Source: Candidatus Latescibacterota bacterium
GTDB lineage: Bacteria > Latescibacterota > UBA2968 > GCA-2709665
Assembly (NCBI GenBank): GCA_963667175.2
Contig: CAXXXF010000002.1
Span: forward strand, 224,001-288,000
Direction of reading: 5' to 3'
DNA length: 64,000 nt
Below the pieces are notes generated by a model. The model had not been told where the DNA came from and ran no database searches. It saw only the letters and a program-made list of their open reading frames with translations. Below, in pieces: positions 42,702-60,583 of the stretch. Numbering within the stretch: position 1 is the stretch's first letter; each line of letters begins with the position of its first letter. The position numbers and the translations under genes were made by a program.

Positions 42702-42705
42702 TTCT

Positions 42706-44376: not shown

Positions 44377-44657
44377 GCGAACGACACTGGTATCTCTTCA
44401 GTTACGATATCCGCGAACCCAAACGGTGGCGTCGTGTGCACAAGATTGTAAACGGATATGGGGAGCGGTTGCAGTATTCGGTATACCGATGTCACTTGAC
44501 GCGGGCACAGATGGAACAGGCGAGGCATGAGCTGGAGAAGGTGATGGGGGAAGACGACGACCTACTTGTGATTCGACTCTCCCATCGCTGCAAGATCGTC
44601 GAGCGGACCGAAAGCAGAACGTGGACGGAGCCGCCGCCCAGGTTCGATATCCTTTAG
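44373..44657 (+). CDS. cas2: Cas2
   Basis: YLFSYDIREPKRWR, GERLQYSVY. Confidence 0.95.
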   Translation: MSERHWYLFSYDIREPKRWRRVHKIVNGYGERLQYSVYRCHLTRAQMEQARHELEKVMGEDDDLLVIRLSHRCKIVERTESRTWTEPPPRFDIL

Positions 44658-44908: not shown

Positions 44909-46961
44909 ACGCAGAAATCTTTGATGCCGAAAGGCGTTGAGCACTTCGAATGAGAATGACTCCACACGAAAAGATCATGAACGCAGAAATCTTTGATGCC
45001 GAAAGGCGTTGAGCACAAAGAAACATCGAAGACGTCCAGGCAAATGACCTTGACGCAGAAATCTTTGATGCCGAAAGGCGTTGAGCACGGGAATGTCATT
45101 GTGGATCGGCAGTGGTTGGTGTATACGCAGAAATCTTTGATGCCGAAAGGCGTTGAGCACTCGATCGGTTCGCCGTCGATCCAGATCCGGCGCGCCAGAC
45201 GCAGAAATCTTTGATGCCGAAAGGCGTTGAGCACCCGTTGCCTGTTCCACTGCGCTCCCCTTTCGCTGCCTACGCAGAAATCTTTGATGCCGAAAGGCGT
45301 TGAGCACCGCTCAGGAAGTCGATTGGCAACGTCGTAGAAGCACGCAGAAATCTTTGATGCCGAAAGGCGTTGAGCACAAGAACATCCAGTCCGCGTATCA
45401 GCACGATACATACGCAGAAATCTTTGATGCCGAAAGGCGTTGAGCACTTGCGCCTCTGCTGGTCCAGCCGCTGGCTCGTGAAGCACGCAGAAATCTTTGA
45501 TGCCGAAAGGCGTTGAGCACCTGGTTGCGCGTTCGCGGATCACACGCCAGGCCCGCCGACGCAGAAATCTTTGATGCCGAAAGGCGTTGAGCACATGGGA
45601 GTGGGCAAGAGGACAGCCCACCCCCATCACACGCAGAAATCTTTGATGCCGAAAGGCGTTGAGCACATACCGAGGGCATTCGCCGCTTCTCTTCCTGCGA
45701 GGTTACGCAGAAATCTTTGATGCCGAAAGGCGTTGAGCACAAGACATCTGGAATTTGAGCGGATTGACGCGGGCGACGCAGAAATCTTTGATGCCGAAAG
45801 GCGTTGAGCACTATCAGACGACGGCCGGCTCGAACACCTTTCCGAACGACGCAGAAATCTTTGATGCCGAAAGGCGTTGAGCACAGGAAAAATCAAATGT
45901 CTTTGTAATGAATGGTGGATACGCAGAAATCTTTGATGCCGAAAGGCGTTGAGCACTATCAGGAATTCAAGGAGCGATTTCTTGTCAATCAACGCAGAAA
46001 TCTTTGATGCCGAAAGGCGTTGAGCACAATGATGCAACACCCGGCGCAACAGGGGGAAGTTGCAAACGCAGAAATCTTTGATGCCGAAAGGCGTTGAGCA
46101 CATCATGGTTGTTCCCCTTGTATGTGTTTGTTGCGCTACGCAGAAATCTTTGATGCCGAAAGGCGTTGAGCACGCTTTAGCTGATGGTTCCCGTAGATGG
46201 GTAGAGATTGACGCAGAAATCTTTGATGCCGAAAGGCGTTGAGCACTCCGATTGCCAGTAGACAATCGACGGCGTTTCGATAACGCAGAAATCTTTGATG
46301 CCGAAAGGCGTTGAGCACTCACAATCGCGGCTGCCGGCGAATCGATCGGCTCGACGCAGAAATCTTTGATGCCGAAAGGCGTTGAGCACGTTAAGAGTTC
46401 GCGGAAAGCCTGCTTGGCCGCCACGCAGAAATCTTTGATGCCGAAAGGCGTTGAGCACCCGCGATCAACCTGGAAAACCGGCTGCGGGTCGACGCAGAAA
46501 TCTTTGATGCCGAAAGGCGTTGAGCACTTAGTTGTGTGGCAAGGGAATAAGCCCAAGCCCGAACGCAGAAATCTTTGATGCCGAAAGGCGTTGAGCACAT
46601 TGATTGCGAATTTCCACTTGATGCCCGCATCTTCGACGCAGAAATCTTTGATGCCGAAAGGCGTTGAGCACGTAAACAGCCTGGAAGATCATCCAGAATC
46701 AATACACTACGCAGAAATCTTTGATGCCGAAAGGCGTTGAGCACTCCGATTGCCAGTAGACAATCGACGGCGTTTCGATAACGCAGAAATCTTTGATGCC
46801 GAAAGGCGTTGAGCACGACCGCCCGCAGTTGCAGGACGGTGTCGCGCAGATCGACGCAGAAATCTTTGATGCCGAAAGGCGTTGAGCACAACCCACATCG
46901 CACACCATCTGTGCCTTTGTTGCCGACGCAGAAATCTTTGATGCCGAAAGGCGTTGAGCAC
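44909..46961 (+). CRISPR. CRISPR array, 29 repeats (ACGCAGAAATCTTTGATGCCGAAAGGCGTTGAGCAC, 36 nt) and 28 spacers of 33-38 nt
   Basis: Counted by eye; hairpin GCC-GAAA-GGC; orientation from the leader side and 3' GTTGAGCAC end. Confidence 0.97.
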
Positions 46962-46998
46962 CCAATGACCATGGCTTGTTCGATAGTGGGGTGAAATC

Positions 46999-47562
46999 TT
47001 GACGCAAAAGGAAATCATCGCACGTCGCCCAAGGCTCAAAGTTCCGGATGAATTTCAGGATGAATGGGTGACTTTGGCCGACGTCGGGTTCGACGGGGAG
47101 TGGGTATCGCCGATTCAGAAGAAATCGAACAGCAGGAAAGGTCCGGTACTCGTAGCGAAACACTGGTTCGATGCGGAATCCGTGAATCTGAATCGAAAAG
47201 TCCTCGAGTGCTTCGGGTATCTGCCCGGCAATCCGTTCAACCGCGCACTTGACCGGGTTCTTGCGTCTGTCGGTCTTGAGCGTGGGGACGTCTACATCAC
47301 GCAGGCGTGCCACTTCCTGCCGAAGAACGACAAGCGGAAGAGAGTGCCGTCCAAATTGATGAAGCTTTCCGTGGAGACGGTGACCCGCCATGAAGTTGAG
47401 GGTCGGCGGGTGATCGCCTTGGGTGGCGAGGCACAGATGGCCTTGACGCGTGCCAATATTGGCTTCCTGCCGTGCCCGCATCCGAGTTCATCGGTCGCTG
47501 GACGATTCGAGGAATTGGCAGAAGCGCTTCGCGATTCGGCGCCGTTCGTCAGCGCCAGTTAG
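46999..47562 (+). CDS. Uracil-DNA glycosylase superfamily-like protein (paralogue of 52777-53316)
   Basis: VYITQA.HF, VIALGGEA, CPHPS motifs. Confidence 0.65.
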   Translation: MTQKEIIARRPRLKVPDEFQDEWVTLADVGFDGEWVSPIQKKSNSRKGPVLVAKHWFDAESVNLNRKVLECFGYLPGNPFNRALDRVLASVGLERGDVYITQACHFLPKNDKRKRVPSKLMKLSVETVTRHEVEGRRVIALGGEAQMALTRANIGFLPCPHPSSSVAGRFEELAEALRDSAPFVSAS

Positions 47563-47564
47563 TG

Positions 47565-47777
47565 ATCTCCCCTCGCTTCGGCGGCCTGCCTGCGCAGCGG
47601 TGTGCGCTGCAGGCAGGGGGGAGCGGATTGAAACCTCTCCCCGATCCCGTCCTACGGATGCCGGTTGTCGTATCTCCCCTCGCTTCGGCGGCGGGAGCGG
47701 ATTGAAACTTGTGTGAGATGTCCTCAGGACAGTCGAGGCAGGATCTCCCCTCGCTACGGCGGGGGGAGCGGAATTCC
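47565..47777 (+). CRISPR. Degenerate mini-array of a second repeat family (ATCTCCCCTCGCTTCGGCGGnGGAGCGGATTGAAAC): 3 repeats, 2 spacers
   Basis: Repeats at 47565-47634 (interrupted), 47672-47708 and 47743-about 47777; spacers 37 and 34 nt. Confidence 0.8.
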
Positions 47778-47804
47778 TTTAAAGGAACAAGAGGGAGTCA
47801 ACAC

Positions 47805-48740
47805 ATTAGGCGAATCGTACTCAGCCGCAAGGGATTCGACTCGAGCCGCAAGGGATTGGAATCGCCGAACGGCGGCGTGCCCAGTCCCATTTTCCCGGAC
47901 GGTCGAATCCTTTCCTTGCCTATTCCGACTCCCAGGCGCTATCCTCAATCTTCGAAACGGTTTGACGACATTGTGTGGGATGGTAGATCGCTATCTCCGC
48001 TCGTGGAGAGTCTTAGTAAAGTTAGAGGTGAGTGTTGGTGCCACTTGGATCCGGATATTCGAGCAGATGCGATCCAACGGCAACCTGGATGGCGGCCGGC
48101 GTTCGGACAGGTTGATGGATCTCAATCCCAATTGGCCAATCAGGAAGTCTCTCAGGGCGACCTGTTCCTGTTTTTTGGTACATTCCGGCGTGTCGAAGAT
48201 GATGGCAGTGGAGGTTGGCGTTACGTCAGAACCGCACCGAAAGTCCATATGCTTTTTGGCTGGTTACAAGTGCAGGAGGTTTTGTCGTTTCGTACTAATG
48301 CCGACTACGACCGGGCACTTTGCAAGTATCCGTGGCTGTCGGACCACCCACATCTCCACAGATCATTTACGGAACGTGCCCACAGTCTTCGCAAGCTTCC
48401 GAACAACACCGTCTACCTGTCGAACCCGAAGCTCAATATACGGGGAATAGACCTACCGGGAGGTGGCGTATTTCAGAGTGAACACGGCCGTATCGTATTG
48501 ACTGATCCAGAGGAGGTTGGAAAAGGAGCACCCTGTCGGCCTTCGTACTGGAGGCTGCCCGAGTGGTTCTGGCCGGACAGCGATTATCGCCGGTTACGAC
48601 GCAAAGTCATGTTGCGGCGGCGCGACACGGAGTGGATCCATGTCGCCTCGGGAGGTAGGGGACAGGAGTTCGTAGTTGACGTACACGACGTCTCAGATGC
48701 CGCAAACAAGTGGGTGCGCAATCTGTTCGAAGATGCTTGA
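47805..48740 (+). CDS. Nmad3 (nucleotide modification-associated domain 3)-like protein; expected ATG reads AGG at 47808
   Basis: IVLSRKGFDS...GGVPSPIFPDG..LSLPIP, CHLDPD, FGQ, GDLFLFFG.F, HPH, GQEFV. Confidence 0.75.
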   Translation: MRRIVLSRKGFDSSRKGLESPNGGVPSPIFPDGRILSLPIPTPRRYPQSSKRFDDIVWDGRSLSPLVESLSKVRGECWCHLDPDIRADAIQRQPGWRPAFGQVDGSQSQLANQEVSQGDLFLFFGTFRRVEDDGSGGWRYVRTAPKVHMLFGWLQVQEVLSFRTNADYDRALCKYPWLSDHPHLHRSFTERAHSLRKLPNNTVYLSNPKLNIRGIDLPGGGVFQSEHGRIVLTDPEEVGKGAPCRPSYWRLPEWFWPDSDYRRLRRKVMLRRRDTEWIHVASGGRGQEFVVDVHDVSDAANKWVRNLFEDA

Positions 48741-48767
48741 GCGGCACCAAGAGTCCGAGAGGTCGCG

Positions 48768-48803
48768 GCGCAGAAATCTTTGATGCCGAAAGGCGTTGAG
48801 CAC
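48768..48803 (+). CRISPR. Solitary repeat of the main array family (35/36 identical)
   Basis: gcgcagaaatctttgatgccgaaaggcgttgagcac, 27 bp after the Nmad3 stop. Confidence 0.92.
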
Positions 48804-49182
48804 GTGATAAAAGAGGCGAGTTGCGATTCTTGGCGATGCAGGCGTCTGGAATTTGAGGGATTGTAGTGGGTGATAGATCGTCTTTCCTGTGGAGTTTACC
48901 GTTCAATAAGAATCAGTCGATCCACGCAATGCAGTCTTAGTGATAAGGGGGGAGCCAATGTCGACACACAAGCTGGAGATCGTACAGGTACTGGAAAAGT
49001 ATCCTGACGGGGCGCTGGTCGAGGAGTTGATGAAAGAAAGGCGGCGGATAAGGAAGTCCGAGACCGGATTGACGCTGCTCGCGTTTTTGCCCGCCAGTGG
49101 GACATCGTACGGGTAGACCATTGTACTTTTCAACTGATGCTGTGAATTGGCAGGTGCGTCACCGTTAGGTAACCATGCACAG

Positions 49183-49286
49183 GTATTGTGCCCACTAAGG
49201 AGCGGTTTGAAATATCAAAACTCCAATGCAGGTGTTCAGTGACCCGTGGGAAATCGAGAATCTTCCATCAGAACAAGGATTGAAAA
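49183..49286 (+). CRISPR. Hybrid repeat-spacer-repeat unit
   Basis: ...taaggagcggtttgaaat, 36 nt, then gaaatcgagaatcttccatcagaacaaggattgaaaa. Confidence 0.65.
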
Positions 49287-49503
49287 TACCCGTGGACAGG
49301 GTCTATTGATTCACTACAGAAGGCTTAGAAAGTACGAACGGTCTGGTTCCTGACGACGCTTTATGCTTAAAGTGCGGAGCAATCGGTTACGGTCAGTGCA
49401 CATGCCCTACACCGGCCCATTGCTGCGACTGAACGGCTCCAGGGGATCTACATTGCACCTGTGCCGTAGGACAGGGACCCGTGTGGTCAGACGAGGAGTA
49501 AAT

Positions 49504-50094
49504 ATGCTGATTTTAATTCTGCTCTCCGTGGGCTTAGCCCAGGCGGAGCTGCCAGAAGGTTTTTCTACCTGGGACTTGTCGATCAAAAAGGATCCCATCG
49601 AAGAAACGACAACTATACGGCTGACCCTGCATGGTGAGGCATTGGTGTATGTTAAGGGTCAGCGATATGGTAGAGAGTATGATCATTTTGGGGCGATCTC
49701 CTTTAGTTGTCATTTGTCCAGATATGCAAGCACAGTAGAAATGGGTGTATTGACCCATAAATCGTTCATATATGGTGTAGAGGAAGGGGACGCGGTGGAG
49801 CCAGCGTTCATGATTATGCGATATGATAGTAAAACGCCGAAGAAGATATTCGGATGGAAAACGACAAGGGTGAAAGGTCGGGATCTGCTTCTACCACCTG
49901 AGGGATTTATGAACGCATTCGTAGATACATTACGTAAAGGCGGACATTATGAATTGTTGTTAAGATCGGAATCGCCGTTTACTGGTAAGCGATGGACAAT
50001 GAAATTTAACGTCACTCACAGTAGACGAAACGTGATGAACTTTCTTAGAAAGTGTAAGGCTCACCGGAGGGATGATCACGGCTACAACTACTGA
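49504..50094 (+). CDS. Secreted hypothetical protein
   Basis: GAGGAG RBS, signal peptide ending AQA, lower GC than the core genes. Confidence 0.65.
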   Translation: MLILILLSVGLAQAELPEGFSTWDLSIKKDPIEETTTIRLTLHGEALVYVKGQRYGREYDHFGAISFSCHLSRYASTVEMGVLTHKSFIYGVEEGDAVEPAFMIMRYDSKTPKKIFGWKTTRVKGRDLLLPPEGFMNAFVDTLRKGGHYELLLRSESPFTGKRWTMKFNVTHSRRNVMNFLRKCKAHRRDDHGYNY

Positions 50095-50188
50095 GCATTT
50101 GAATAGCGCCATATTTCTTCCTGCTCAAGCAGTTGAAGATATAGAGAAGGATGATTGGTATCGCGGACACCTGCGAACGCGCACGTAA

Positions 50189-50225
50189 CCCGTTGAGAAT
50201 CTTCCATCGGAACAAGGGTAGAAAC
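50189..50225 (+). CRISPR. Solitary degenerate repeat, CTTCCATCAGAACAAGGATTGA family
   Basis: cccgttgagaatcttccatcggaacaagggtagaaac. Confidence 0.65.
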
Positions 50226-50280
50226 TTGCCCAAACCAGAAAACGGGCGACAAAGTAGCTGATGGGGCTCTCTACTTAGAT

Positions 50281-50598
50281 TTGGACGGTGGAGAATTAGG
50301 CAAAACGGTCTTGTCCGTCGAAGGCGGAAACATCCGACCGTCGGATTTACAAGACCTGCAAGGGGTGTTACATTCCGATCCAGATGCCCGCCTTTCCGGT
50401 TTCCTTTCGTTGAATGAACCCACAAAGGCAATGGGAAAGGCTGTCAGTTCAGATGGACAATGGAGTTACAAGGGCGAGACCTACGACAAAATTCAGTTGC
50501 TCACCGTTCGTGACGTGGTCGACGGGAAGCGGTTGTTCCAGACGCCTACCAGCCTGAAATACAAGGATTACCACTTGCAGGAAACGATCCGGTTTTAG
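50281..50598 (+). pseudogene. Fragment of an Mrr-like restriction endonuclease domain, of the kind fused C-terminally to DNA methyltransferases
   Basis: SV.GG.IRP.D..DL.GVL...GFLSL..PT..M...Y.KIQLLTV; N-terminus absent. Confidence 0.55.
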
Positions 50599-50990
50599 AT
50601 CTCCAATTCGGGAAGAAGACATATGCGACCGAATCTCGCGCAGGTCAAGTCGTTTATTCTATCCGAGTTTCCTGAGTTACTGCCAGATGGCCATTGAAGA
50701 CGGATGGTCTTTTTTCTATAAAGAGATAAGAAAAGGACGCGACTCCACCCGAATCGCCCGCGTCAAGCAGGCGAGCTCAAACAGTAAAATAGATTTCAAA
50801 CCTGCTGTTACTGCCAGAATAACGGGAGATGAACGATTGAGGGTTGAGATAACAACTGACTGGGAGAACGAGATTCGCAACGTAACCGAACGGGAGTTGG
50901 AACTTTGGGAGTGCCATTTCGGGAAACAGGATTGGCAATTTTAAACCCAAAACGCACCAGCCCGTCTCTTAATTTCGTCCTGCGCGCGTG

Positions 50991-51092
50991 ATTTCCCCTC
51001 GCTTCGGCGGGGCACGAGGGATTGAAGCTAGTCCACGGGGGCGATCCGTAAGGGTATCGGGTCGCCCCCTACGTGGTGCGTGGGCTGAAAAA
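50991..51092 (+). CRISPR. Hybrid unit: family-2 repeat, 32-nt spacer, type I-C-like repeat
   Basis: atttcccctcgcttcggcggggcacgagggattgaagc (50991-51028); gtcgccccctacgtggtgcgtgggctgaaa (51061-51090). Confidence 0.65.
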
Positions 51093-51153
51093 GCGCCGCC
51101 ACGCTTATTTACAGGTAACCCGTTTCCACTCCATACTTCGACAAGGAGGTCCG

Positions 51154-51741
51154 ATGGACACGAGTGAATTGTACGAATTTAGCCAGGGTCTGGAGTCGCT
51201 GATCCGAAAACCGACCGATCTGCGACCCTTCGTATGTGAGGGTTCGCCTCTTGCATGTGATGCGTTCCTCGTGGGTATCAATCCCGCGAGCGAAATGTCG
51301 GATGACTTCTGGGATTTCTGGTCGGACAGTTATGGATTCGACAAGAGCGCGTGGTTTGAGAAGTACAAGGAGGAGCGAAGAACTCGCCCGCTGAAACTCG
51401 GAAGGAAGAGAAGGAATGAAGTAAGCAACACACGCAGAATCATCGAGGAGGTCGTTTTGGGCGCCAATCCCGTCAAATGTCTTGAGACGAACATATACGC
51501 GAAAGCGACGAAACAGGCATCGGACCTGGACGAGCAAAACAGAATCACGGCGCCCTTCGACTATCTCTTGCGCGAGATAGCGCCGAAGTTGGTGATTGCC
51601 CACGGCAAGGACGCTGCCGAGTACCTGCAAGCGCAGGACCTACCGTGCAAACTCAGGTGTGTCAAACATTTCCGACTCTGGTCCAAGCAGAACGCGCGAG
51701 ATCTAGGGTTGAGTATTCGCAGGTATTGTGAGGGAGAGTAG
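51154..51741 (+). CDS. Uracil-DNA glycosylase superfamily-like protein
   Basis: FLVGINPA, ETNIY, PKLVIAHGK, KHF; AAGGAGG RBS. Confidence 0.65.
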   Translation: MDTSELYEFSQGLESLIRKPTDLRPFVCEGSPLACDAFLVGINPASEMSDDFWDFWSDSYGFDKSAWFEKYKEERRTRPLKLGRKRRNEVSNTRRIIEEVVLGANPVKCLETNIYAKATKQASDLDEQNRITAPFDYLLREIAPKLVIAHGKDAAEYLQAQDLPCKLRCVKHFRLWSKQNARDLGLSIRRYCEGE

Positions 51742-51887
51742 CGGGACCGCGCGTGAAAACCCGCCTCGGGTTCACAGCCCATTCGCTTCGCCGGTTGACG
51801 TCCAAAGTCGCTAGGCGAGCCACGCCCGCTGAGATTCCTGCATAAGTAACGAGGTTTGACCGGAACGAAGGATGAAGGGGTCTATGG

Positions 51888-52751
51888 ATGATCAAGATAG
51901 TCAGTTGGAACATCGACAACCGAATGCAGCCGTGGTGCGAACTGGTGCGGATGGCGCAGGACGGCGAGGCCGACCTGGCGCTCCTGCAGGAAGCGGGTGG
52001 CCCGCCAGGCGACCTTGTACATCTGGTCGAATACGATGATGCGGTGTTTTGGAACCGCCAACTTTACGACCGATGGCCACTGGTCGTGAAGTTGTCCGAT
52101 CGAATAGCAGTCGAACATTACCGACAGGTGCCGCCGATCAGCGAACTTGGTATGAGCGACATTGGCGTGAGCGGTATCGGGACCATCGCCGCCGCGAGGG
52201 TGATCCCTTACGAAAGTGAAGATGAGGCCTTCGTCGCTGTCTCCATGTACGCGCGCTGGCTGAAGCCGCATCCGTCTACGGATAGCCCATGGAAAGTCGG
52301 TTACTCGGATGCGTCGGCACATCGAGTTATTTCGGACCTATCGGCTTTCATCGGTCACACCAACCCGTCCAGACACAGGATTCTGGCGGCAGGCGACCTG
52401 AACATGTTTTACGGGGCAACCGGCACGAGACTGTCACTGCCGGAACGTGAGCGCACGGTCTGGGATCGAATGAAATCGCTCGGACTGGAATTTTTGGGAC
52501 CGCAGGTTCCTTGCGGACGACCCGCACCGACTGCGCCGGACGACGTACCTTGCGATACGAAGAATGTACCGACGTACTACAAGGTTGGAGAATGCCCGGA
52601 AAAGGCGACGAATCAATTGGACTACGCATTTGCGTCGCACGGCTTCCACGAAAGGGTTTCAGTACGGGCGATGAACGAGATTTGCGAATGGGGATGCAGC
52701 GACCACTGCAGGCTGATCATTGAGGTAAAGACGAACGCCGATAGCGCCTGA
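51888..52751 (+). CDS. Endonuclease/exonuclease/phosphatase (EEP) family protein
   Basis: IVSWNI, LLQEA, AGDLN, LDYAFAS, SDH. Confidence 0.88.
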   Translation: MIKIVSWNIDNRMQPWCELVRMAQDGEADLALLQEAGGPPGDLVHLVEYDDAVFWNRQLYDRWPLVVKLSDRIAVEHYRQVPPISELGMSDIGVSGIGTIAAARVIPYESEDEAFVAVSMYARWLKPHPSTDSPWKVGYSDASAHRVISDLSAFIGHTNPSRHRILAAGDLNMFYGATGTRLSLPERERTVWDRMKSLGLEFLGPQVPCGRPAPTAPDDVPCDTKNVPTYYKVGECPEKATNQLDYAFASHGFHERVSVRAMNEICEWGCSDHCRLIIEVKTNADSA

Positions 52752-52776
52752 CAGAGTTGCGCCACGAGGTGAAACC

Positions 52777-53316
52777 ATGGAACGAGAGGACATAATCGAA
52801 CGTCGCCGAAGCCTTCAAGTTCCGGACGAATTTCAGGATGAATGGATGACATTAGCCGACGTCGGGTTCGACGGTGAGTGGGTATCGCCAATTCAGAAGA
52901 TATCGAACAGCATGAGGGGTCCGGTACTCGTAGCAAAGCACTGGCTCGACGCCGAATCCGTGGATCTGAATCGGGAAGTCCTCGAATGCTTGGGATATTT
53001 GCCTGGCAACCGATTCAATCAGTCTCTTAATCGGGCCCTGGCAAATGTCGGGAAAGCACGTGGGGACGTCTACATTACACAGGCGTGCCACTTCCTACCG
53101 AAGGACGACAAGCGGAAGCGAGTGCCGGCCGAATTGATGAAACTTTCCGTGAAGGAGGTGACCCGCTATGAAGTTGAGGGTCGAAGGGTCATTGCGTTGG
53201 GTGGTGAGGCTCAGTTGGCCCTGGAGCGTTTCGGTATTGATTTTCTGCCGTGCGCGCATCCGAGTTCATCGGTCACTGGACGATTCGAGGAATTGGCAGA
53301 TGCGATTCGAGATTAG
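52777..53316 (+). CDS. UDG superfamily-like protein (paralogue of 46999-47562)
   Basis: Highly similar translation; VIALGGEA, CAHPS. Confidence 0.65.
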   Translation: MEREDIIERRRSLQVPDEFQDEWMTLADVGFDGEWVSPIQKISNSMRGPVLVAKHWLDAESVDLNREVLECLGYLPGNRFNQSLNRALANVGKARGDVYITQACHFLPKDDKRKRVPAELMKLSVKEVTRYEVEGRRVIALGGEAQLALERFGIDFLPCAHPSSSVTGRFEELADAIRD

Positions 53317-53341
53317 GCGCCGTTCGTGGGCTCTATCCCAA

Positions 53342-53451
53342 ATCTCCTCTCGCTTCAGCGGTGGGAACGGATTGAAACGCGTCGCGCCGCTCGCAGATGG
53401 AGTGGATGGCGGCGCCCAGCGAGAGCCTTCCATCAGAACAAGGATTGAGAC
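53342..53451 (+). CRISPR. Three abutting repeats of different families
   Basis: 53342-53378 family 2; 53381-53408 I-C-like gtcgcgccgctcgcagatggagtggat; 53415-53451 cccagcgagagccttccatcagaacaaggattgagac. Confidence 0.7.
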
Positions 53452-53456
53452 TGCTT

Positions 53457-53633
53457 ATGCCGCAAGATATCCGAAATCGACAGGAACCGGCCGCCTTCCA
53501 GGTCTGGCATCCGGATGGGACGCCCTTTTCCGATGATGACTATCGAAAGGCCGGAATGCCTGTACCAACCCCCGAGCAGATCGCTCACTGGGCTGAGATG
53601 GACCGAAGTTTCGCCGATCCGGATACTGACTGA
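53457..53633 (+). CDS. Small hypothetical protein (WHPDGTP domain)
   Basis: Conserved paralogue at 55643-55837 and a fused copy at about 57105-57200. Confidence 0.6.
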   Translation: MPQDIRNRQEPAAFQVWHPDGTPFSDDDYRKAGMPVPTPEQIAHWAEMDRSFADPDTD

Positions 53634-53653
53634 GGCTTGATCGGATACATCCG

Positions 53654-53689
53654 CCCAGAGAAATCGTCCATCAAAGAATGGATTGAAGC
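53654..53689 (+). CRISPR. Solitary degenerate repeat overlapping the methyltransferase start
   Basis: cccagagaaatcgtccatcaaagaatggattgaagc aligns with 53415-53451. Confidence 0.55.
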
Positions 53690-54522
53690 TGCCCAACGGG
53701 CTGCGTCCGGACGGAGGACCTGAACTTGTGACTGGCGCCAACTACGACACTCCCTGGTGGCCGCTTATATACGACCAGTGGAACGAGCGGGGCGATAGGC
53801 AGCAGACGCACCAGCGCGAGTTCCAATTCTACAGCATGCAGCTCACCGGAGAGGCGGGTCCGATCCTCGAAACGGCTTGCGGCACTGGTTCGATTCTGCT
53901 TCGCCTTTGGCGCCACGGCGTTGACATAAGGGGTTTCGATTGCGCCGCAGGGATGCTGGCCGTTCTGCGGCGCAAGGCAGCGGCTCTGGGGCTGGGCGAT
54001 ATCGACCGCCGCGTTGGCTGTCAAGACCTCGTTGACTTCTGCTACGACCAGTCCTTTGCAGCCATTCTGATTCCGGCCAGTTCGTTCATGCTCTTACCCA
54101 CACAGTCGGCCCAAATCACCTGTCTCGAACGCATTCGCGCGCATATGGCACCTGGCGGGCGGCTACTGATGAATTTCTACATCCCGTCGCTTGCCGACGA
54201 CCTGCTTGCCCACATCGCCCCGTCCCCGTCGCTGGAAACATTCGGCGAATTCATCCACCCCCAAACAGGCCGCCAAATCAGCGTCCGCTTCAAAAAGATC
54301 GTCGATCTGGGCGAGCAGACTGAGCACTACGAGTGGTTTTTTCTCTACGACGGAGAAACTGCAGCCGTGCCCATGACTGCGCGGTGGATCTACAAAGAAG
54401 AATTTCAGCTATTGCTGCGTCTGGCAGGATTTAGCCGCTGGCGGCTTTCTGGCACCCACGACGGCCAGCCGTACACAGGTTCAAAGGAGATTGGGACGAC
54501 GTACTGGGTCGTCGAACGCTGA
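53683..54522 (+). CDS. Class I SAM-dependent methyltransferase
   Basis: ILETACGTG, GFD...ML, HMAPGGRL. Confidence 0.85.
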   Translation: MKLPNGLRPDGGPELVTGANYDTPWWPLIYDQWNERGDRQQTHQREFQFYSMQLTGEAGPILETACGTGSILLRLWRHGVDIRGFDCAAGMLAVLRRKAAALGLGDIDRRVGCQDLVDFCYDQSFAAILIPASSFMLLPTQSAQITCLERIRAHMAPGGRLLMNFYIPSLADDLLAHIAPSPSLETFGEFIHPQTGRQISVRFKKIVDLGEQTEHYEWFFLYDGETAAVPMTARWIYKEEFQLLLRLAGFSRWRLSGTHDGQPYTGSKEIGTTYWVVER

Positions 54523-54851
54523 GCGGATCAGTACCTGCAAACGGTGGTGACCGTTTGGTAAGCTGGTTAGGGTCTGCCAGCACCGTTGGTTGAAAGACGA
54601 TAGGTATTGTTCGCTACTGCATCAGGGGATACTTCAAGGCGATTCAGTTCGCCACGGCGAGACACAATCGACTGGGTTCCCTGCCTGGCCAATGCGTGAT
54701 GGCGACCCGCCGGAAATCTGGTTTCAGCTGGACAAAGGACGACCTCTCCAACATGATCGACAAGACTTTGAAGTGGGACGTGGATTGAAGCTGCTGCGGG
54801 GTTTATCCCAGGGGACGGACTGTATCACGCGACACAGGAGGAGATGACCCA

Positions 54852-55538
54852 ATGTGCGGTCGATTTACCCAGATGATGTCCTGGGGTGAGCTCCATTGGC
54901 TTTACAGCCTGTCCGAACACTCGGAATCGCTGGAGTTGCAATCCCGCTATAACGGCGCGCCGACCCAGGATTTCGCGGTCTGCCGCCTGGACGGAAACGG
55001 CAACCGGGAGATCGACAGGCTGCAATGGGGTCTGGTACCCGCGTGGTCCAAAGACGTCAGAATCGGCGCCCGCATGATCAACGCACGGGCCGAAAGCGTA
55101 CACGAGAAACCGGCATTCGGCGCCGCCTTTCGGGCGCGCCGGTGCCTGGTGCCGGCCGACGGGTGGTTCGAGTGGCAAGCAGCAGGGAGCGCCAGACAGC
55201 CCTACTTCCTGGCGCTCGCGGACGGGTCGACGCTGTCGTTCGCCGCGCTGTGGGAACGCTGGGATAGAGGCGGCGCCGCCCTGGAGTCATTTACCATCAT
55301 CACCACGGCCGCCGACGAAGCGCTTTCCAACGTCTACCATCGCCAGCCTGCCGTCATCAATCCCGAACACTTCTCCGTCTGGCTCGACAACGAATCATCC
55401 GCGGCGACGTTGCTGGATCTGGTTCGCTATCCTCGCGCGGGACCGTACGAAATACGCGCCATCGGCGCTCGCGTAAACAATGTCCGAAACGACGATCCGG
55501 ACGTTCTCCTGCCCACGTCCCAGCAGCGCCTGTTCTAA
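54852..55538 (+). CDS. SRAP (YedK/HMCES) abasic-site-protecting autopeptidase
   Basis: N-terminal MCGRF, YN.APTQ, INARAES, RCLVPADGWFEW, HRQP.I. Confidence 0.93.
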   Translation: MCGRFTQMMSWGELHWLYSLSEHSESLELQSRYNGAPTQDFAVCRLDGNGNREIDRLQWGLVPAWSKDVRIGARMINARAESVHEKPAFGAAFRARRCLVPADGWFEWQAAGSARQPYFLALADGSTLSFAALWERWDRGGAALESFTIITTAADEALSNVYHRQPAVINPEHFSVWLDNESSAATLLDLVRYPRAGPYEIRAIGARVNNVRNDDPDVLLPTSQQRLF

Positions 55539-55544
55539 GTCCAC

Positions 55545-55637
55545 ACGGGAGAGCGGATTGAAACGACAAAACACCAGTGCCGGTGGTCAGTGACCCGTGG
55601 CCCAGTGAGAGTCTTCCATCAGAAAAAGGATTGAGAC
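55545..55637 (+). CRISPR. Hybrid repeat-spacer-repeat unit (paralogue of 49183-49286)
   Basis: acgggagagcggattgaaac, 36 nt, then cccagtgagagtcttccatcagaaaaaggattgagac. Confidence 0.7.
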
Positions 55638-55642
55638 TGCCT

Positions 55643-55837
55643 ATGCCGCAAGATATCAGAAATCGCCAGGAGCCCGCCGCCTTCCAGTGCTGGCATCCGG
55701 ACGGTACCCCTTACTCGCCGGCAGACTATCGAAAGGCCGGGATGCCTGTCCCGACCCCCGAGCAGATCGCCCACTGGGCTGAGATGGACCGAATATTCGC
55801 CGATCCGGTGAGAATTGTCAATCAGAACAAGAAGTGA
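55643..55837 (+). CDS. Small hypothetical protein (WHPDGTP domain), second copy
   Basis: MPQDIRNRQEPAAFQCWHPDGTP...DYRKAGMPVPTPEQIAHW. Confidence 0.6.
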   Translation: MPQDIRNRQEPAAFQCWHPDGTPYSPADYRKAGMPVPTPEQIAHWAEMDRIFADPVRIVNQNKK

Positions 55838-55876
55838 AACAGCGAATCCGTCCCAATCCTCGCCTGGACGATCGAT

Positions 55877-55912
55877 GTCTCCCCTCGCTTCGGCCGGGGA
55901 GCGGATTGAAAC
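55877..55912 (+). CRISPR. Solitary family-2 repeat
   Basis: gtctcccctcgcttcggccggggagcggattgaaac. Confidence 0.8.
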
Positions 55913-55991
55913 GTCGCCGCAATGTCCCCGCGCCCTTGTGAAAAGGCGAAGTCGACGGGGCGGTACGTGGCGCCAATGGAGGTGAATAACA

Positions 55992-57257
55992 ATGCTATTC
56001 AGACTTACTCGAGATGGAGATAAGAACGGTTTTCAGCCATATGTCGAAACGTCAGCATCAGACTTGCAACTCACCGAAAAGAACCTGGAAACCTGGATGG
56101 CGCTGCACCCTGAGTTGCTTTTTGGAAGCGAGCAAGTCCTTGTGATCAGCCAGTCAGTCGCAGGTCAGAGCATGGGCGACATTCTGGCGTTAGACGCCGA
56201 TGGATGTTTAGTGATCGTCGAGATTAAGCGGGACTGGTCCGATAGAGCGACGGTTGGCCAAATCCTGGAATATGCGGCCGAAATGACCGGGAAATGTTAT
56301 GAGGACCTGGAGAAACTGCATCACAGCTACTGGATCAAACAACACTCGAATTGTAATTATGCATCCTTGCTGACGCGGTTTCAAACCCTGACCGACAACC
56401 ACGAATGTGATGAGGACGATATTCCGAGACGTCAAAAAGGTCATCGAATTCTAGTCGTCGCACCGGCTGCTGACGAGGGCCTGATGAGGATTGTAGAGTG
56501 GCTTAGAGAGTATGGTGTGCCGATCAGCTTTGTGCCTTTCACGATCCATGCAGATACGGAAAGCAAAGACATCTTGCTGGAGCTAGAGCCGCTCCCCGAG
56601 GCTCAGTCGTTCGGAGAAATGGTAGACAGTCAGGAATGGCGTGGAGATTGGATCTTTAATACGAACGAAACTTACGCCCCAGGCGCATACCGAAAGATGT
56701 TTGATCAACGCGTAATTGCTATCCACGGATATGAGAGCGGTCCAGCCAATCTGACAGGTAGTGCCGAAGGGCAGCGGGTATTCGCTTATGTAAATCGCAA
56801 AGGTGTCCTGGCGGTGGGTCGTATCGTTAACGGCCAACCGGTTTCGGGGACAACCGTGTTTGGCGAGGAACGCGAGTTCCATGTGAAGGTCGTCTGGGAG
56901 ACAATCGTGGACGATGACAGGGGAATGACATTACGGGACGTCAGCGAAGAAAAAGGTTACAATCTCCCTGTTCGATGTGTCTTTGCTCGCATGAATCGTC
57001 CCGATGCCGCCGATTGGATCGCCGACGAACTGCAAAGCAGGATGGATAAACGTAATCCTGGACGTAGAGGCTCAAGATTCTCAGACCCTATCGTCGGCCG
57101 CGCCTGGCATGCCGACGGCACGCCTTTTGGTGAGGAAGACTACAGGAGAGCGGGCTTGTATGTCCCCACCGAGGAACAATTGGCCGCGTGGGAGAAGGCG
57201 GATGCCGAACGCGACGCGCTACCGCCCGGTGAGAATCTACCGCCAGAACAGGAATGA
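55992..57257 (+). CDS. NucS/DUF91-like PD-(D/E)XK endonuclease with putative EVE/PUA-like domain and C-terminal WHxDGTP domain
   Basis: EKNLE.W...P.L, DILALD..G.LVIVEIKR...VGQILEY; G.RVFAY...GVLAVG.I. Confidence 0.7.
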   Translation: MLFRLTRDGDKNGFQPYVETSASDLQLTEKNLETWMALHPELLFGSEQVLVISQSVAGQSMGDILALDADGCLVIVEIKRDWSDRATVGQILEYAAEMTGKCYEDLEKLHHSYWIKQHSNCNYASLLTRFQTLTDNHECDEDDIPRRQKGHRILVVAPAADEGLMRIVEWLREYGVPISFVPFTIHADTESKDILLELEPLPEAQSFGEMVDSQEWRGDWIFNTNETYAPGAYRKMFDQRVIAIHGYESGPANLTGSAEGQRVFAYVNRKGVLAVGRIVNGQPVSGTTVFGEEREFHVKVVWETIVDDDRGMTLRDVSEEKGYNLPVRCVFARMNRPDAADWIADELQSRMDKRNPGRRGSRFSDPIVGRAWHADGTPFGEEDYRRAGLYVPTEEQLAAWEKADAERDALPPGENLPPEQE

Positions 57258-57404
57258 AGCAGCAGTGGTCGGTGGTCCGTGTCAGTGACCAGTCCGAAAG
57301 CCGGATGATGTACGGGAAGGTGCATGCGCGCCTGCGGATGCCGGCTTCCAGCTCAATTCCGTGGGTCTTCAAAGCCGAAATGAATCCGGGGAGGCAGGGA
57401 AACC

Positions 57405-58277
57405 ATGAAAATCGTTTTCAGTCGCAAGGGATTCGACTCGACCCGCAGGAGATCTGAATCGCCGAACGGCGGCGTGCCCAGTCCCATCTTTCCGGACGGC
57501 GCCGCCCTGTCCCTGCCAATTCCGCAACACGGAAGTCGGACGCGCTACGGGGACGTACAGTGGCGCGGCGAGTCGATCGGTCCGATTGTGGAGTGCTTGA
57601 CTGAGGGTCGAGTGAAGCAAGGTGATTGTTGCCATCTCGACCCCGATCTGAACGCCGATGCCCTTGCGCGCTTGCCCGGATGGCGGCCGGCCTTCGGGCA
57701 GTCACAGGCCGCTCAGAGCCATCTGAAAAACGAGGGTGTCGAACCCGGGGACCTCTTTCTGTTCTTCGGCTGGTTCCGCGCCGTGGAACCCGGCAAAGGA
57801 GGCATGTGGCGGTACGTTTCAGACGCCCGGGACGTACACAGGCTGTTCGGTTGGCTCCAGGTTTCCGAGGTCGTGCCCGTCGGGGCGGATCTCGCCCGCG
57901 CCCGGTCCGAGCGGCCGTGGCTATCCAGGCATCCGCATCTGAATAGGGATAGGGACAACAACACGATCTACATCGCAAGGGAGAAACTTGACGTCGAGGG
58001 CGTGACTGCGCGGAGCGACGCAGGCCTGTTTTCCGGCAACGGCGACCGATTCACACTGACGGCGCCGGGTTCCAGGACCCGCTCCAATTGGCGGTTGCCT
58101 TGGTGGTTCTATCCCTCAAACGGTCGTCCAACGCTCAGCTACCACGGCAATGGGGATCGCTGGCAGCACGCGAAACCGTGGGTATACCTGGACACGGTCG
58201 GCATCGGGCAGGAGTTCGTGTTCGACGCCGGCGGGATCCCGGAAGCAAACGTCTGGTTGCGAGAACTGTTCAGGTGA
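57405..58277 (+). CDS. Nmad3-like protein
   Basis: MKIVFSRKGFDS, CHLDPD, GDLFLFFGWF, HPH, LSYH, GQEFV. Confidence 0.8.
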   Translation: MKIVFSRKGFDSTRRRSESPNGGVPSPIFPDGAALSLPIPQHGSRTRYGDVQWRGESIGPIVECLTEGRVKQGDCCHLDPDLNADALARLPGWRPAFGQSQAAQSHLKNEGVEPGDLFLFFGWFRAVEPGKGGMWRYVSDARDVHRLFGWLQVSEVVPVGADLARARSERPWLSRHPHLNRDRDNNTIYIAREKLDVEGVTARSDAGLFSGNGDRFTLTAPGSRTRSNWRLPWWFYPSNGRPTLSYHGNGDRWQHAKPWVYLDTVGIGQEFVFDAGGIPEANVWLRELFR

Positions 58278-58588
58278 AGGGTTGTGCCGAGTATCGGCAG
58301 ACGGAACAGAAAGGCATCGCTGGAAATCTCGGCGGGAGAACAGATATGCGGCGAAGCAACGAAAAGCGCAATCGTCTTGCTGCACTCGCCCGCCATCTCC
58401 GGGACAATGTTCCATCCGGATTCCGGGGGGCGGCGACTATCATTCGGGCGTTTATGAATGCGGATTCGTATCGCCGTATACAAAGTTGGCAGGCAATCTA
58501 CACGCATGTGTCGCAAATTGCGACACATGCCAGCACCTGCGTCGTTCGTTGGCGCATTCGCTGCCAACAAACAGGCCGCACGGTACCC

Positions 58589-58615
58589 GTAGGGGCGACC
58601 GGCCGGTCGCCCCTA
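58589..58615. repeat. REP-like palindrome GTAGGGGCGACCGGCCGGTCGCCCCTAC (also about 59515-59539 and 62201-62228)
   Basis: GTAG-started hairpin overlapping the 3' end of antitoxin genes or remnants. Confidence 0.7.
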
Positions 58616-58721
58616 CGCTGCCAGAGGCTCGATGGAAAGCCTAAATCCGATCCGCCGGAGGACCTCAGGCGTGAGGTCGCGGCCGGCATGATCGCGGCAG
58701 GGGAGATGTTTGAATCGAAAT

Positions 58722-59054
58722 CTATGTAAGGTTCAGCCAACTTTGCAGAGAAGCGATCAAAGTCGTCTGATCATTTTGCGCGAGGGATCCGATTTTCTTG
58801 AAAATCAGCTTCTGATGAATCGTATAGATGCCTCGTTTGACGGCAGACGCAACGTTGAGTCCCGATTCCGTCCACTTGTCGAGCACGAACTCGCCAGGTA
58901 ATAGATCTGTTATTCTGCTGGTTAGCGGAACAATGAAAACATCCTGAGAAACATGGAGCGTGCTCACAATGATGGCCGGACGCACTTTGGAATCCTGCAA
59001 GTCAACAAACGGATATCGGACGAGTACGACGTCATTCTCCAAGTAAACGGACAT
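58722..59054 (-). CDS. PemK/MazF-family toxin
   Basis: DVVLVRYPF.D....KVRPAIIVS, VPLTS, GLNVAS. Confidence 0.85.
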   Translation of the reverse strand: MSVYLENDVVLVRYPFVDLQDSKVRPAIIVSTLHVSQDVFIVPLTSRITDLLPGEFVLDKWTESGLNVASAVKRGIYTIHQKLIFKKIGSLAQNDQTTLIASLQSWLNLT

Positions 59055-59232
59055 ATACATCGTCCTCATTATTGTCCCAAACTTGCTTCAGGGCATCCTG
59101 GCTGGCTTCGTGCCAGAACGAATCATCATCGGGCAAAATCGTAACCAATACTCTTTTCCCTTCGGGCAACGCAATGCGTTCGAGGGTTTCAATTTTTCCA
59201 TCTTTCACGATCCCCATTGCGGTGCTGAGCAT
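59032..59232 (-). CDS. Cognate antitoxin (DUF104/AbrB-like)
   Basis: GIVKDGKI...LPEG.RVLVT, WDNNEDDVY; overlaps the toxin start. Confidence 0.7.
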   Translation of the reverse strand: MLSTAMGIVKDGKIETLERIALPEGKRVLVTILPDDDSFWHEASQDALKQVWDNNEDDVYVRLLGE

Positions 59233-59535
59233 GAACAACTCCTTTTCGATTCTTCACGTGCCTATTCCGGTACCAATATGCTCTTGACGTTGTAGCGGTA
59301 GCTATTGATGCTCTGGGCAGCTATCGACCGGTCCTTCAGTCCGTCGAACAAGATATAGCCAACATTCCGGCGAAAAGCAACTGCTTTGACACGACAATGC
59401 GTGCAAAACCAAAATCTCCTCGGCGCATGAAGTACTTCACGGTAGAAATCGTTGTGGTTGCCTGAAAGTTTACGTACCGCGCGTGAATCGGACTGGCGCC
59501 CGCGGCGCCGGTCCGGCGCGAACGGCCGGTCGCCC

Positions 59536-59846
59536 CTACTGCTCTGCCAGGGGCTCGATGGAAAGCCTGAATCCGAGGCTGTTCAGGATCTTCTCCATCG
59601 TGTCAAGGCGAGGATTTCCGTCTCCCGAGAGCGTCCTGTACAGGTGAGCCCGGTTTAGATTCGCCTGCCGCGCCAACTTTCCCAGCCCGCCTCTTGCCGT
59701 CGCAACGTCCTTCAGAGCCAGCAGAAGGACGGTTCGATCCCTGTCTCTGGCGTATTCCTCCAGCGCGACCTCGAGGTAGGCGCGAGCGCGGTCCGGATCA
59801 CTGAGGAATTCGAAATGGTGTTTTTCGAACGATACGGAGGCTTCAT
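59536..59846 (-). pseudogene. Addiction-module antidote (HTH) with a 1-nt deletion right after the ATG
   Basis: AYL..ALEE...LALKDVA.ARGG...LA...L.R.HLY..LS..GNPRL; ATGAA versus ATGGAA in the paralogue at 62536. Confidence 0.6.
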
Positions 59847-60011
59847 CAGGAACGCTCCTTCTGTAGACTTCGGGAGCTTGTTGGCGCACTTGGCAGGAGG
59901 ACTTGCGCCGTCACCCGAAACCAACGCGACGGAATCGTCGCGATACATCCTTTCCGGATCGCCAGGTGTGTGTCGGCAACCTGCGTATCTAAAGGCCTCG
60001 CACGCGGAAAA

Positions 60012-60335: not shown

Positions 60336-60583
60336 TCCCACTCCGTGTTGTCCCACTCGGTAGCTGCCTGAGACTGGTCGTCGATGAGTGTGTCGTCCTG
60401 CTGTTTGCCCATGTTGCGAAAGGCGTCGTCCCATCCGCACCGAGGTTGGGTCGGTGGGCGAATAATCAAATGGTCGCCGTGGTGTTCGAGTTCCACGACG
60501 TCCTGAAGGTGACACTGTTCCAGGAACGCCCGGGGGATGCGGATGCCGCGCGAATTTCCGATTTGAACGAGAGCGGTTTTCAC
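60329..60583 (-). CDS. MazE/AbrB antitoxin
   Basis: LVQIGNSRGIRIP, PR.GW..AF, WD..EWEW. Confidence 0.88.
   Translation of the reverse strand: MKTALVQIGNSRGIRIPRAFLEQCHLQDVVELEHHGDHLIIRPPTQPRCGWDDAFRNMGKQQDDTLIDDQSQAATEWDNTEWEW

Follow-up and report, generated by a model that had tools for sequence, protein, structure and literature searches.

The 64,000-nt window analysed here (positions 224,001 to 288,000 of the forward strand of contig CAXXXF010000002.1) belongs to G000, the 5.52 Mb, 95% complete assembly of a Candidatus Latescibacterota bacterium, and contains a CRISPR-Cas locus whose array is followed on the trailer side by a long tail of genes and solitary CRISPR repeats. Seven + strand cas genes span 36238-44657 and are followed by a leader and then by the array (Table 1). 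Six of the seven matched Pfam families, the exception being the large subunit, and from the gene order we take the system to be a Myxan-like variant of type I-B, a name that follows the published classification and was not given by a typing tool. The repeat of this array (family F1) has a hairpin proximal to its 3' end and is close to Rfam CRISPR-DR33, with a score under the gathering threshold. Only 44909-46961 has the make-up of a canonical CRISPR array; from 46962 onward the repeats lie 0.1-2 kb apart.

The tail extends for at least 22 kb past the array and consists mostly of + strand genes. A preliminary description, made from the sequence alone, had reported that the cargo genes behind the array are co-oriented and that most of the gaps between them hold a + strand repeat belonging to one of four families (F1 to F4 below). 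Fifteen + strand open reading frames (ORFs), all co-oriented (15/15), indeed occupy 46999-58277, where the overlapping - strand ORFs are without family support. Twelve of the 14 gaps between these genes contain a solitary or decayed repeat, always on the array strand, and no repeat was detected in the gaps 50599-50686 and 52752-52776. A gapped local scan of both strands from 46963 to window-equivalent position 69700 returned 27 matches on the + strand (1 F1, 9 F2, 11 F3 and 6 F4-like, some of the latter overlapping F2) and no F1-F4 match on the - strand; a control repeat from the other G000 array gave 0 and 1. We also ran an ungapped scan, at 30% mismatches or fewer, on both strands of the whole assembly. 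It placed 30/30 F1, 3/3 F2 and 6/7 F3 matches within this locus, all on the + strand, the sole outside copy being an F3 on contig C3 (C3:320278). Since nearly all matches lie in this locus, the motifs are not equally common elsewhere in the genome.

The individual repeats named in the preliminary description were mostly recovered. The exact F1 copy at 48768 and the six F2 copies at 47565, 47672, 47743, 50991, 53342 and 55877 were all found. The F3 copies at 49250, 50189, 53415 and 55601 are clear and the one at 53654 is a weak relic only; further F3 copies lie at 55805, 57225, 51825 (weak), 63485 (weak) and window-equivalent 68146. Family F4 fared less well: the copy at 51061 is plausible with one gap, those at 54773 and 55545 are 3' fragments, the latter fitting F2 as well as F4, and 53381 gave no match, being merely the 36-nt stretch between an F2 and an F3.

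Table 1. Features of the cas operon, the resident array and the tail, in window positions.
Feature	Position	Strand	Remarks
cas6	36238-36864	+	Pfam PF09559
cas3	36825-39251	+	Pfam PF18019/PF22590
large subunit	39143-41077	+	without Pfam match
cas7 (DevR/Csa2)	41074-42003	+	Pfam PF01905
cas5	41931-42701	+	Pfam PF09704
cas4-cas1 fusion	42682-44376	+	Pfam PF01930+PF01867
cas2	44328-44657	+	Pfam PF09827
resident CRISPR array	44909-46961	+	29 exact 36-nt F1 repeats, 28 spacers, period 69-74 nt, downstream of cas2
'giant spacer' segment, 1.8 kb	46962-48767	+	between final repeat of the array and another exact F1 copy
UDG-like gene	46999-47562	+	inside the 1.8-kb segment
F2 relic mini-array	47565-47772	+	decayed; 37- and 34-nt spacers; hairpin plus 11-nt tail
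F2 split by 33-nt palindrome	47565-47634	+	first unit of F2 relic mini-array
F2	47672-47708	+	second unit of F2 relic mini-array
F2, 3'-truncated	47743-47772	+	third unit of F2 relic mini-array
Nmad3, first copy	47709-48740 (ORF)	+	start uncertain
solitary exact F1	48768-48803	+	first base G instead of A, as in the G012 array
F2 3' fragment	49200-49213	+	then 36-nt spacer-length stretch, then F3
solitary F3	49251-49287	+	repeat scans
probable secreted protein	49505-50094	+	ORF listed from 49363; ATG at 49505 follows GAGGAG; no family match
solitary F3	50189-50225	+	repeat scans
two small ORFs	50281-50598, 50687-50944	+	no family match; no repeat detected in between
F2	50991-51027	+	then 33-nt spacer-length stretch
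probable F4 relic	51061-51092	+	needs gap, score 35; fails ungapped scan at <=30% mismatches
UDG-superfamily-like protein	51155-51741	+	weak: Pfam PF03167, E 0.0018, below cut-off; ORF listed from 51073
weak F3 relic	51825-51859	+	local score 31
EEP nuclease/phosphatase	51888-52751	+	Pfam scan
UDG-like protein, paralogue of 46999-47562	52777-53316	+	82% DNA identity through end of following F2
F2	53342-53378	+	then 36-nt spacer-length stretch, then F3
F3	53415-53451	+	repeat scans
small ORF a, WHxDGTP family, 58 aa	53457-53633	+	starts 5 nt after F3
F3 relic, weak	53654-53690	+	local score 28; follows small ORF a
SAM-dependent methyltransferase	53683-54522	+	Pfam PF13649
15-nt repeat 3' fragment (...GTGGATTGAA)	54775-54789	+	inside EEP-like remnant ORF 54590-54847
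SRAP (SOS-response-associated peptidase)	54852-55538	+	Pfam PF02586, E 3e-64
F2 3' half	55547-55564	+	fits F4 equally; then 36-nt stretch, then F3
F3	55601-55637	+	55547-55637 unit paralogous to 49200-49290
small ORF b, 64 aa	55643-55837	+	stop is TGA inside next F3 copy
F3	55805-55840	+	its TGA ends small ORF b
solitary F2	55877-55912	+	repeat scans
421-aa PDC-S11-like protein	55992-57257	+	weak NucS_C similarity; WHxDGTP domain at end; reads into F3 relic
F3 relic	57225-57258	+	overlaps end of 421-aa gene
Nmad3, second copy	57405-58277	+	third starts 63633; fragment 61932-62184
distal tail	58582-64000	.	MazF/PemK toxins, HI1420-type antidotes (- strand), helix-turn-helix protein, DUF2335 protein, REP-like palindromes
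weak F3 relic	63485-63504	+	gapped scan

To identify the repeat families we used 61 related genomes. The F3 core occurs in 25 of them and forms arrays of 22-142 copies in 11; the 5' half of F2 occurs in eight, with arrays of 33 and 38 copies in G010 and G013; F1 occurs in three, with an array of 27 in G012, and an array of 27 F4 repeats is present in G014. Sister species use each of the four families as the repeat of a resident array, F1 together with cas genes of the Myxan-type I-B. The genes beside the F3 array of G002 are cas6b, cas8b (TM1802), cas7, cas5, cas3, cas1 and cas4. The F2 array of G007 lies beside cas5d, csd1 and cas7 (Pfam), then ORFs clustering with Cas3, Cas4, Cas1 and Cas2 from the other loci, and the same cas clusters are found in G013 and G014. 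These neighbours make F3 a Cas6b-type I-B repeat and F2 and F4 I-C repeats, so that the I-C label given to F4 in the preliminary description was right and the labels I-G for F2 and III for F3 were wrong. As is typical of I-C, a hairpin with an 11-nt tail is preserved in the F2 copies; in a structure test F3 was unstructured (z 0.4-0.5) and F2 and F1 formed simple hairpins.

Within the window cas genes are present for F1 only, as had been stated. In the whole of G000, tblastn found no homologues of the I-C effector proteins Cas5d, Cas8c and Cas7c or of the Cas6b-type I-B proteins Cas6b and Cas8b, and F1 is the only tail repeat with a cognate Cascade in this genome. The second CRISPR-Cas system of G000, of type I-G, lies on contig C13 (C13:48241-78000) and comprises GSU0053, GSU0054, two Cas3-like genes, cas4-cas1, a cas2 fused to an AAA-ATPase-like region and an 18-repeat array of a fifth repeat, which was not found in the tail by the gapped scan.

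The same kind of tail is present in seven further genomes of the genus, and we compared nine loci from the eight genomes. Most have a one-family resident array followed by 7-25 kb with solitary copies of other families. The nine loci contain 64 solitary repeats (50 F3, 9 F2, 3 F4 and 2 F1), counted at 30% mismatches or fewer, and all 64 are on the array strand. Binning or assembly did not create the pattern, since four of these genomes each consist of one contig, 5.1-5.8 Mb long. The islands of G008 and G010b (one of the G010 loci, L012, on the reverse strand; positions refer to the oriented locus) lack both an array and any Cas1/Cas4-like ORF within the 20 kb examined, and the genes that flank them have homologues 7 kb upstream of the G000 cas operon. 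In G002, the resident F3 array is interrupted by rve and DDE transposase insertions, one of which cuts a repeat; these interruptions were left out of the cassette counts.

Homologous cargo recurs beside repeats in the relatives and its order is shuffled, as the preliminary description had suggested one should look for. The clusters shared among the eight genomes include Nmad3, EEP nuclease, UDG-like, SRAP, PDC-S11, DUF4432, GmrSD, S51 peptidase and a cysteine-rich 183-aa protein, together with DUF6361 with a helicase, a restriction endonuclease-helicase, UvrD and a ParA-like protein. From these families the cargo probably has a role in defence or conflict. In the G000 tail, PADLOC reported the 421-aa protein as a candidate PDC-S11, a weak mad2-like match for the methyltransferase, one marginal ShosA match and nothing more. 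We compared 212 spacers, from the arrays of seven genomes, with the nine loci and the whole of G000 and found only matches of 17-19 nt, at chance level, none of them to any tail; there is thus no sign that the cargo comes from targeted elements.

We next asked whether the tails break and join at the repeats. An all-against-all BLASTN of the tails gave 307 breakpoint clusters. For 33 of them the nearest repeat edge is at most 10 nt away; the space taken up by the repeat-edge windows would lead one to expect 5.2, so that the enrichment is about six-fold. Two indels are bounded by F3. At the first, a lone F3 in G008 corresponds to a 2.2-kb segment of G010b with an F3 copy at each end; the flanks are orthologous, the one on the left (1223 nt, 86%) matching the sequence left of the first F3 and the one on the right (166 nt, 90%) that right of the second. 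At the second, of 1.0 kb, G008 keeps a chimeric repeat, its 5' part like the left copy and its 3' part like the right copy. Both show the pattern that recombination between two direct repeats, or an insertion at one repeat, leaves behind. In G000, the homology of the Nmad3 cassette with G012, G013 and G002 ends 2-3 nt from the edge of the solitary F1, and in those genomes it continues into a decayed F3.

Repeats also travel with cargo, which bears out another proposal of the preliminary description, that cargo moves with repeat scars. A UDG-like gene plus F2 occurs twice in G000 (82% identity), and further pairs are F3-small ORF-F3 and Nmad3-F3 relic. Downstream of the F3 on contig C3 (C3:320278-320314), at a distance of 21 nt, comes an ORF similar to the S51 peptidase cargo (a fragment), and the S51 peptidase of G012 is likewise preceded by F3. 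One spacer of the G000 array is present twice (46247-46282 and 46745-46780), as are two adjacent spacers of the G012 array and one of the C13 array. The duplicated spacers of G000 and G012 show that recombination occurs within these arrays. Recombination between repeats is an accepted route of spacer loss from arrays (PMC8047081). Apparent joints at 49285 in metagenome contigs were mostly array or module repeats aligning to solitary copies and were not used. A single contig of run X1 joins 51754 to 49256, that is, it has another neighbour upstream of the F3 at 49251, and is a weak hint.

On balance we favour, with some reserve, the view that the tail is a trailer-side hypervariable island of defence genes which stands on the remains of successive arrays and is reshuffled by repeat-to-repeat recombination. 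Species of the genus carry different CRISPR-Cas subtypes before tails with one common cargo pool, and each change of subtype would have left the repeats of the older array in place. These repeats could recombine with each other and with repeats on DNA coming in from relatives, by a RecA-type or slippage-type process as in spacer loss, and since all of them are direct repeats on one strand, gene-sized segments could in this way be deleted, inserted and reordered. The repeats would act as cassette boundaries, with an integron-like outcome and no dedicated integrase. Most of the non-resident repeats would then decay as relics, and the F3 in front of a small-protein gene (see below) would be retained in its 5' region. 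F2, F3 and F4 have ten 3' bases in common (GGATTGAAAC), and exchange at this microhomology is a possible source of mixed-family junctions.

Several observations weigh against this view. The remaining 274 of the 307 breakpoint clusters lie away from detected repeats, so that the repeats account for only part of the shuffling, and part of the enrichment at repeat edges arises since the repeats are themselves conserved ends of modules. The two F3-bounded indels can be read in either direction, as deletions or as insertions. Repeats of different families are often 24-37 nt apart, as in a hybrid array (in G000, F2-36 nt-F3 occurs three times), a spacing that turnover plus recombination does not explain. 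The strict co-orientation of the first 15 genes hints at function or recent events, and so do the exact resident-type repeats found deep in tails (G000 48768; G010b 7235 and 8885). Finally, the F3 repeats upstream of the small ORFs vary at 41 of their 370 positions and the adjoining small ORFs at 67 of 227 four-fold sites (the pairs are not independent), and because they change less than these sites, not all repeats are neutral debris. In G010b, positions 8755-8982 hold F1', F4', F2 and F3' in a row, 24-35 nt apart, as a hybrid mini-array.

The preliminary description had thought of an integron-like platform with the repeats as cassette boundaries or recombination sites. Its observations are confirmed and extended to a genus, and its interpretation is partly supported. 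The boundary role agrees with the breakpoint enrichment, the two indels and the shared shuffled pool; an integron-type recombinase was not among the scanned ORFs, and most breakpoints are not at detected repeats. We found no integrase or recombinase family in the 35 G000 locus ORFs scanned, which include L001:5266-6108 on the stretch beyond the window (L001), and no transposase among the tail ORFs scanned, the two copies of an IS110-family gene (one copy scanned) lying only upstream of cas6.

The repeats might instead be passive debris, remnants of dead arrays that are uninvolved in the rearrangements, the genes having come by insertion sequences or unrelated routes. The transposases that interrupt the F3 array of G002 and the many breakpoints away from repeats fit such a history, and degraded standalone repeats are reported to be common in cas loci (10.1101/2023.03.03.530964). 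It is hard to reconcile with the enrichment of breakpoints at repeat edges, with two clean repeat-bounded indels, one of which left a recombinant repeat, with repeats that travel with cargo (the F3-S51 peptidase fragment on C3 and the repeated UDG-F2 pair) and with a G000 tail in which no transposase was found among the ORFs scanned, and we regard it as quite unlikely.

A more active origin would be capture by Cas1-Cas2(-Cas4), which would sometimes integrate gene-length 'giant spacers' and duplicate the repeat, as a CRISPR-driven analogue of the integron. Segments of the expected form exist: 1.8 kb between two F1 repeats in G000, with a right junction within 3 nt of the repeat edge, and 1.6 kb between two exact F2 repeats in G010b, and small ORFs occupy whole inter-repeat slots. 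The G000 segment, however, lies at the trailer end and already holds relics of other families, and the 26 nt at its left junction are without a comparator and leave that junction uncheckable. Moreover, islands persist without nearby cas genes, Cas1-Cas2 integration cannot create repeats of foreign families, and we know of no Cas1-Cas2 that puts kb-sized DNA into arrays. Capture of this kind therefore seems unlikely to us.

The repeats could also act at the level of RNA. The tail would then be read through from the array as continued pre-crRNA, and its repeats would be Cas6 or Cas5d cutting sites that free single-gene mRNAs (a possibility raised in the preliminary description) or would give CRISIS-like crlRNAs for Cascade control of defence genes. 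Every repeat is on the strand that would be transcribed, terminator-like sites on the + strand are not above shuffles (19 vs 15.5), the F1 copy at 48768 is an exact resident repeat, F2 retains its hairpin and I-C-type tail, the F3 copies upstream of small ORFs are conserved beyond four-fold sites, and a defence gene followed by a solitary repeat unit is the anatomy of CRISIS (10.1101/2024.12.27.630466). Against this, the absence from the 95% complete G000 of Cas6b, Cas8b, Cas5d, Cas8c and Cas7c homologues for F2-F4 weakens the idea of Cas-cut single-gene mRNAs. The tail F3 copies of G002, despite its cognate system, carry 5-11 mismatches and are as degenerate as elsewhere. Cas6b-type cleavage occurs 8 nt from the repeat end and would take the stop codon off 6 of the 16 small ORFs described below. 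We also compared the 18 nt that follow 37 solitary repeats (five loci) with 5 kb on either side, on both strands. For 35 of the 37 units the best pairing (10-13 of 15 scored positions) equalled the shuffled controls, and the two exceptions (14/15) are matches between paralogous small-ORF modules. Since the post-repeat stretches pair no better than shuffled controls, the CRISIS model does not fit and was rejected as a general explanation; an RNA-level function as a whole we consider rather unlikely.

Some of the 'spacer' slots between repeats hold genes for a new family of small proteins. This family (49-80 aa) carries the motif W-H-x-D-G-T-P-[FY]...D-Y...A-G...P-T...Q-L...W and has 16 copies in the nine loci, four of them in G000, where one is the C-terminus of the 421-aa protein. 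In 13 of the 50 solitary F3 copies an ATG of a small ORF lies 2-5 nt past the repeat, and one copy in G014 stands in the same relation to the terminal F4 repeat. At the other end, 6/16 stop at the TGA within the ATTGAAAC end of the next repeat, 2/16 read through the repeat, and the remaining 8/16 stop at most about 20 nt before it; with stops in or close before the next repeat, the gene fills the slot. With dN/dS values of 0.10-0.37 the family is under purifying selection. The repeat upstream is under constraint even in G000, which has no Cas6b, and this points to a role in the 5' region of the small-ORF gene. F3 copies before a small ORF are not better conserved than the other detected F3 copies (6.3 vs 6.8 mismatches, p 0.48) in a detection that itself favours conserved copies, and those downstream of the three stand-alone G000 small ORFs are visibly decayed.

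The small protein is short and acidic. It has no Pfam family (best E 0.15) and no usable match in the Atlas, and the family forms 67 clusters among 5.8 billion proteins, all unnamed or hypothetical; a modest AlphaFold2 model reached a mean pLDDT of 72.5 and Foldseek found nothing in the PDB at E <= 0.001. In Chloroflexota (Caldilineaceae, Dehalococcoidia) and Binatia records (L034, L035, L038, L040-L043) the WHxDGTP domain sits inside longer ORFs, and no F3-like repeat was seen by eye in about 130 nt upstream and 170 nt downstream.

One could go further and see the repeats as attC-like sites of a gene-capture platform that works across subtypes, with some 'spacers' being protein-coding minigenes. 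The repeat would supply the translation signals of the WHxDGTP gene and Cas6-type cleavage would strip its leader and stop codon, so that expression would report repeat processing, as a sensor of CRISPR status or an addiction device. We put this forward as a speculation that is rather unlikely. Less probable still is that the solitary repeats of foreign subtypes are decoys which act like RNA anti-CRISPRs against the CRISPR-Cas of invaders, or that integrated elements left the small ORF behind as an anti-CRISPR. Solitary units that mimic repeats do inhibit Cas complexes (PMC10651486), and the small protein, being short, acidic and without known family, would suit such a role. Yet many repeat copies are decayed, none of the 212 spacers matches any tail, and the exact degenerate F3 and F2 patterns gave 0 matches in viral contigs, so that a viral origin of the repeats finds no support in these exact-pattern searches. 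The locus itself is chromosomal.

Among known systems, integrons consist of gene cassettes whose 3' ends carry attC sites, imperfect palindromes that are recognised in folded single-stranded form, with an IntI tyrosine recombinase beside the cassettes and, in chromosomal integrons, with toxin-antitoxin (TA) modules. The tails resemble integrons and superintegrons in their co-oriented, mostly promoter-poor cassettes, their short boundary repeats, their shared and shuffled pool and their TA modules. They differ in that no IntI-type tyrosine recombinase and no attC-type sites were found, that the boundaries are CRISPR repeats of several families and that the likely mechanism is general recombination. 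Spacer loss from arrays (PMC8047081; 10.1101/2022.05.19.492656) is alike in that direct CRISPR repeats recombine and a boundary is kept after deletion; here the units are kb-sized and protein-coding instead of spacers of about 35 nt, and the repeats are relics outside a functional array.

Our literature search found no account of multi-family cassette tails or of protein-coding 'spacers'; it did not cover the supplementary tables of 10.1101/2023.03.03.530964 and 10.1101/2024.12.27.630466, which may bear on novelty. The nearest published work concerns standalone repeats, mini-arrays, solitary repeat units (SRUs) and CRISIS. Repeat-like units outside arrays, single or paired and often partly degraded, have been described in cas neighbourhoods (10.1101/2023.03.03.530964), and Faure et al. 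2019 (as cited in PMC8616872) put forward the idea that DNA could enter arrays when such units recombine with the repeats there. The standalone-repeat and SRU surveys thus share with our tails CRISPR-like, partly degraded repeats outside arrays. Those surveys used the resident repeat and found one or two units per locus, within cas loci or on viruses, whereas the tail described here has at least 20 units that are spread along more than 20 kb and set genes apart from one another; they belong to four families, of which three are foreign to the genome, and the arrangement is found across the genus. CRISIS (Shu et al. 2024, 10.1101/2024.12.27.630466) likewise has defence-type genes by CRISPR-Cas, each followed by a solitary repeat unit. 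There the resident Cascade is the cognate complex of the unit, whose spacer-like part (about 16 nt) pairs with the cassette promoter beside a PAM; in our tails no such pairing was found and most units are without cognate Cas proteins in the genome. In CreTA (summarised in 10.1101/2023.03.03.530964) repeat-like sequences lie on both sides of a small gene, likewise in a type I-B context. The toxin CreT is an RNA, which Cascade represses by way of creA, and here a conserved protein of 50-70 aa is encoded between full repeats.

Standalone CRISPR repeats are usually taken for debris or for regulators that belong with the resident system. In the present case the repeats that mark joints of a genus-wide shuffled pool of defence-type genes come from four families, and for three of these the genome encodes no cognate Cas proteins. 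If this were general, CRISPR arrays would serve defence islands as scaffolds for gene exchange besides being memory banks, which would help to explain the pile-up of defence genes beside CRISPR loci and the replacement of one subtype by another at the same site. The small proteins in 'spacer' slots are a concrete new object, be they anti-CRISPR, toxin, regulator or something else.

Some minor features of the locus remain to be described. Just upstream of cas6, at 32750-36050, an IS110-family transposase gene is present in two tandem copies (446 aa each, - strand) with a 1650-nt unit, the duplication being exact across 1653 nt. The 33-nt palindrome at 47585-47617 (CCTGCCTGC...GCAGGCAGG type) interrupts an F2 repeat in its loop region, and because its 9-mer CCTGCCTGC is found 293 times genome-wide the palindrome looks like a small REP or MITE-like element. 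In the first Nmad3 copy (47790-47815) an ATT stands at the position of the GTG start codon of G012 and the listed ORF begins upstream at a TTG and runs through the truncated F2 copy, which makes the true start or the integrity of this gene uncertain.

The island runs past the window, with an F3 (window-equivalent 68146) plus small ORF c to at least 68182 and an F2 fragment at 69573. Group II intron RNA domains were found at L001 4503-5234 (window-equivalent 66503-67234; RF02003 102 bits, RF00029 46 bits), directly upstream of an S51 peptidase cassette, and the roughly 450 nt between the two Rfam matches are the only room for any intron-encoded ORF. In the distal tail, - strand TA genes at 58722-62629 comprise two MazF/PemK-like toxins and two HI1420-type antidotes, duplicated at 86-96% identity; TA cassettes are known from chromosomal integrons, which these genes recall. 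A perfect or near-perfect palindrome, GGGGCGACCGGCCGGTCGCCCC, flanks the distal - strand TA modules (58592, 59515 and 62204; L001 about 2650 and 6594) and has 22 copies genome-wide at two mismatches or fewer. Metagenome contig depth is highest in the two bins that contain its copies at 58592 and 62204. As to habitat, near-identical pieces of the locus are present in the sponge-metagenome runs X2 and X3 (e.g. 873 nt with 1 difference).

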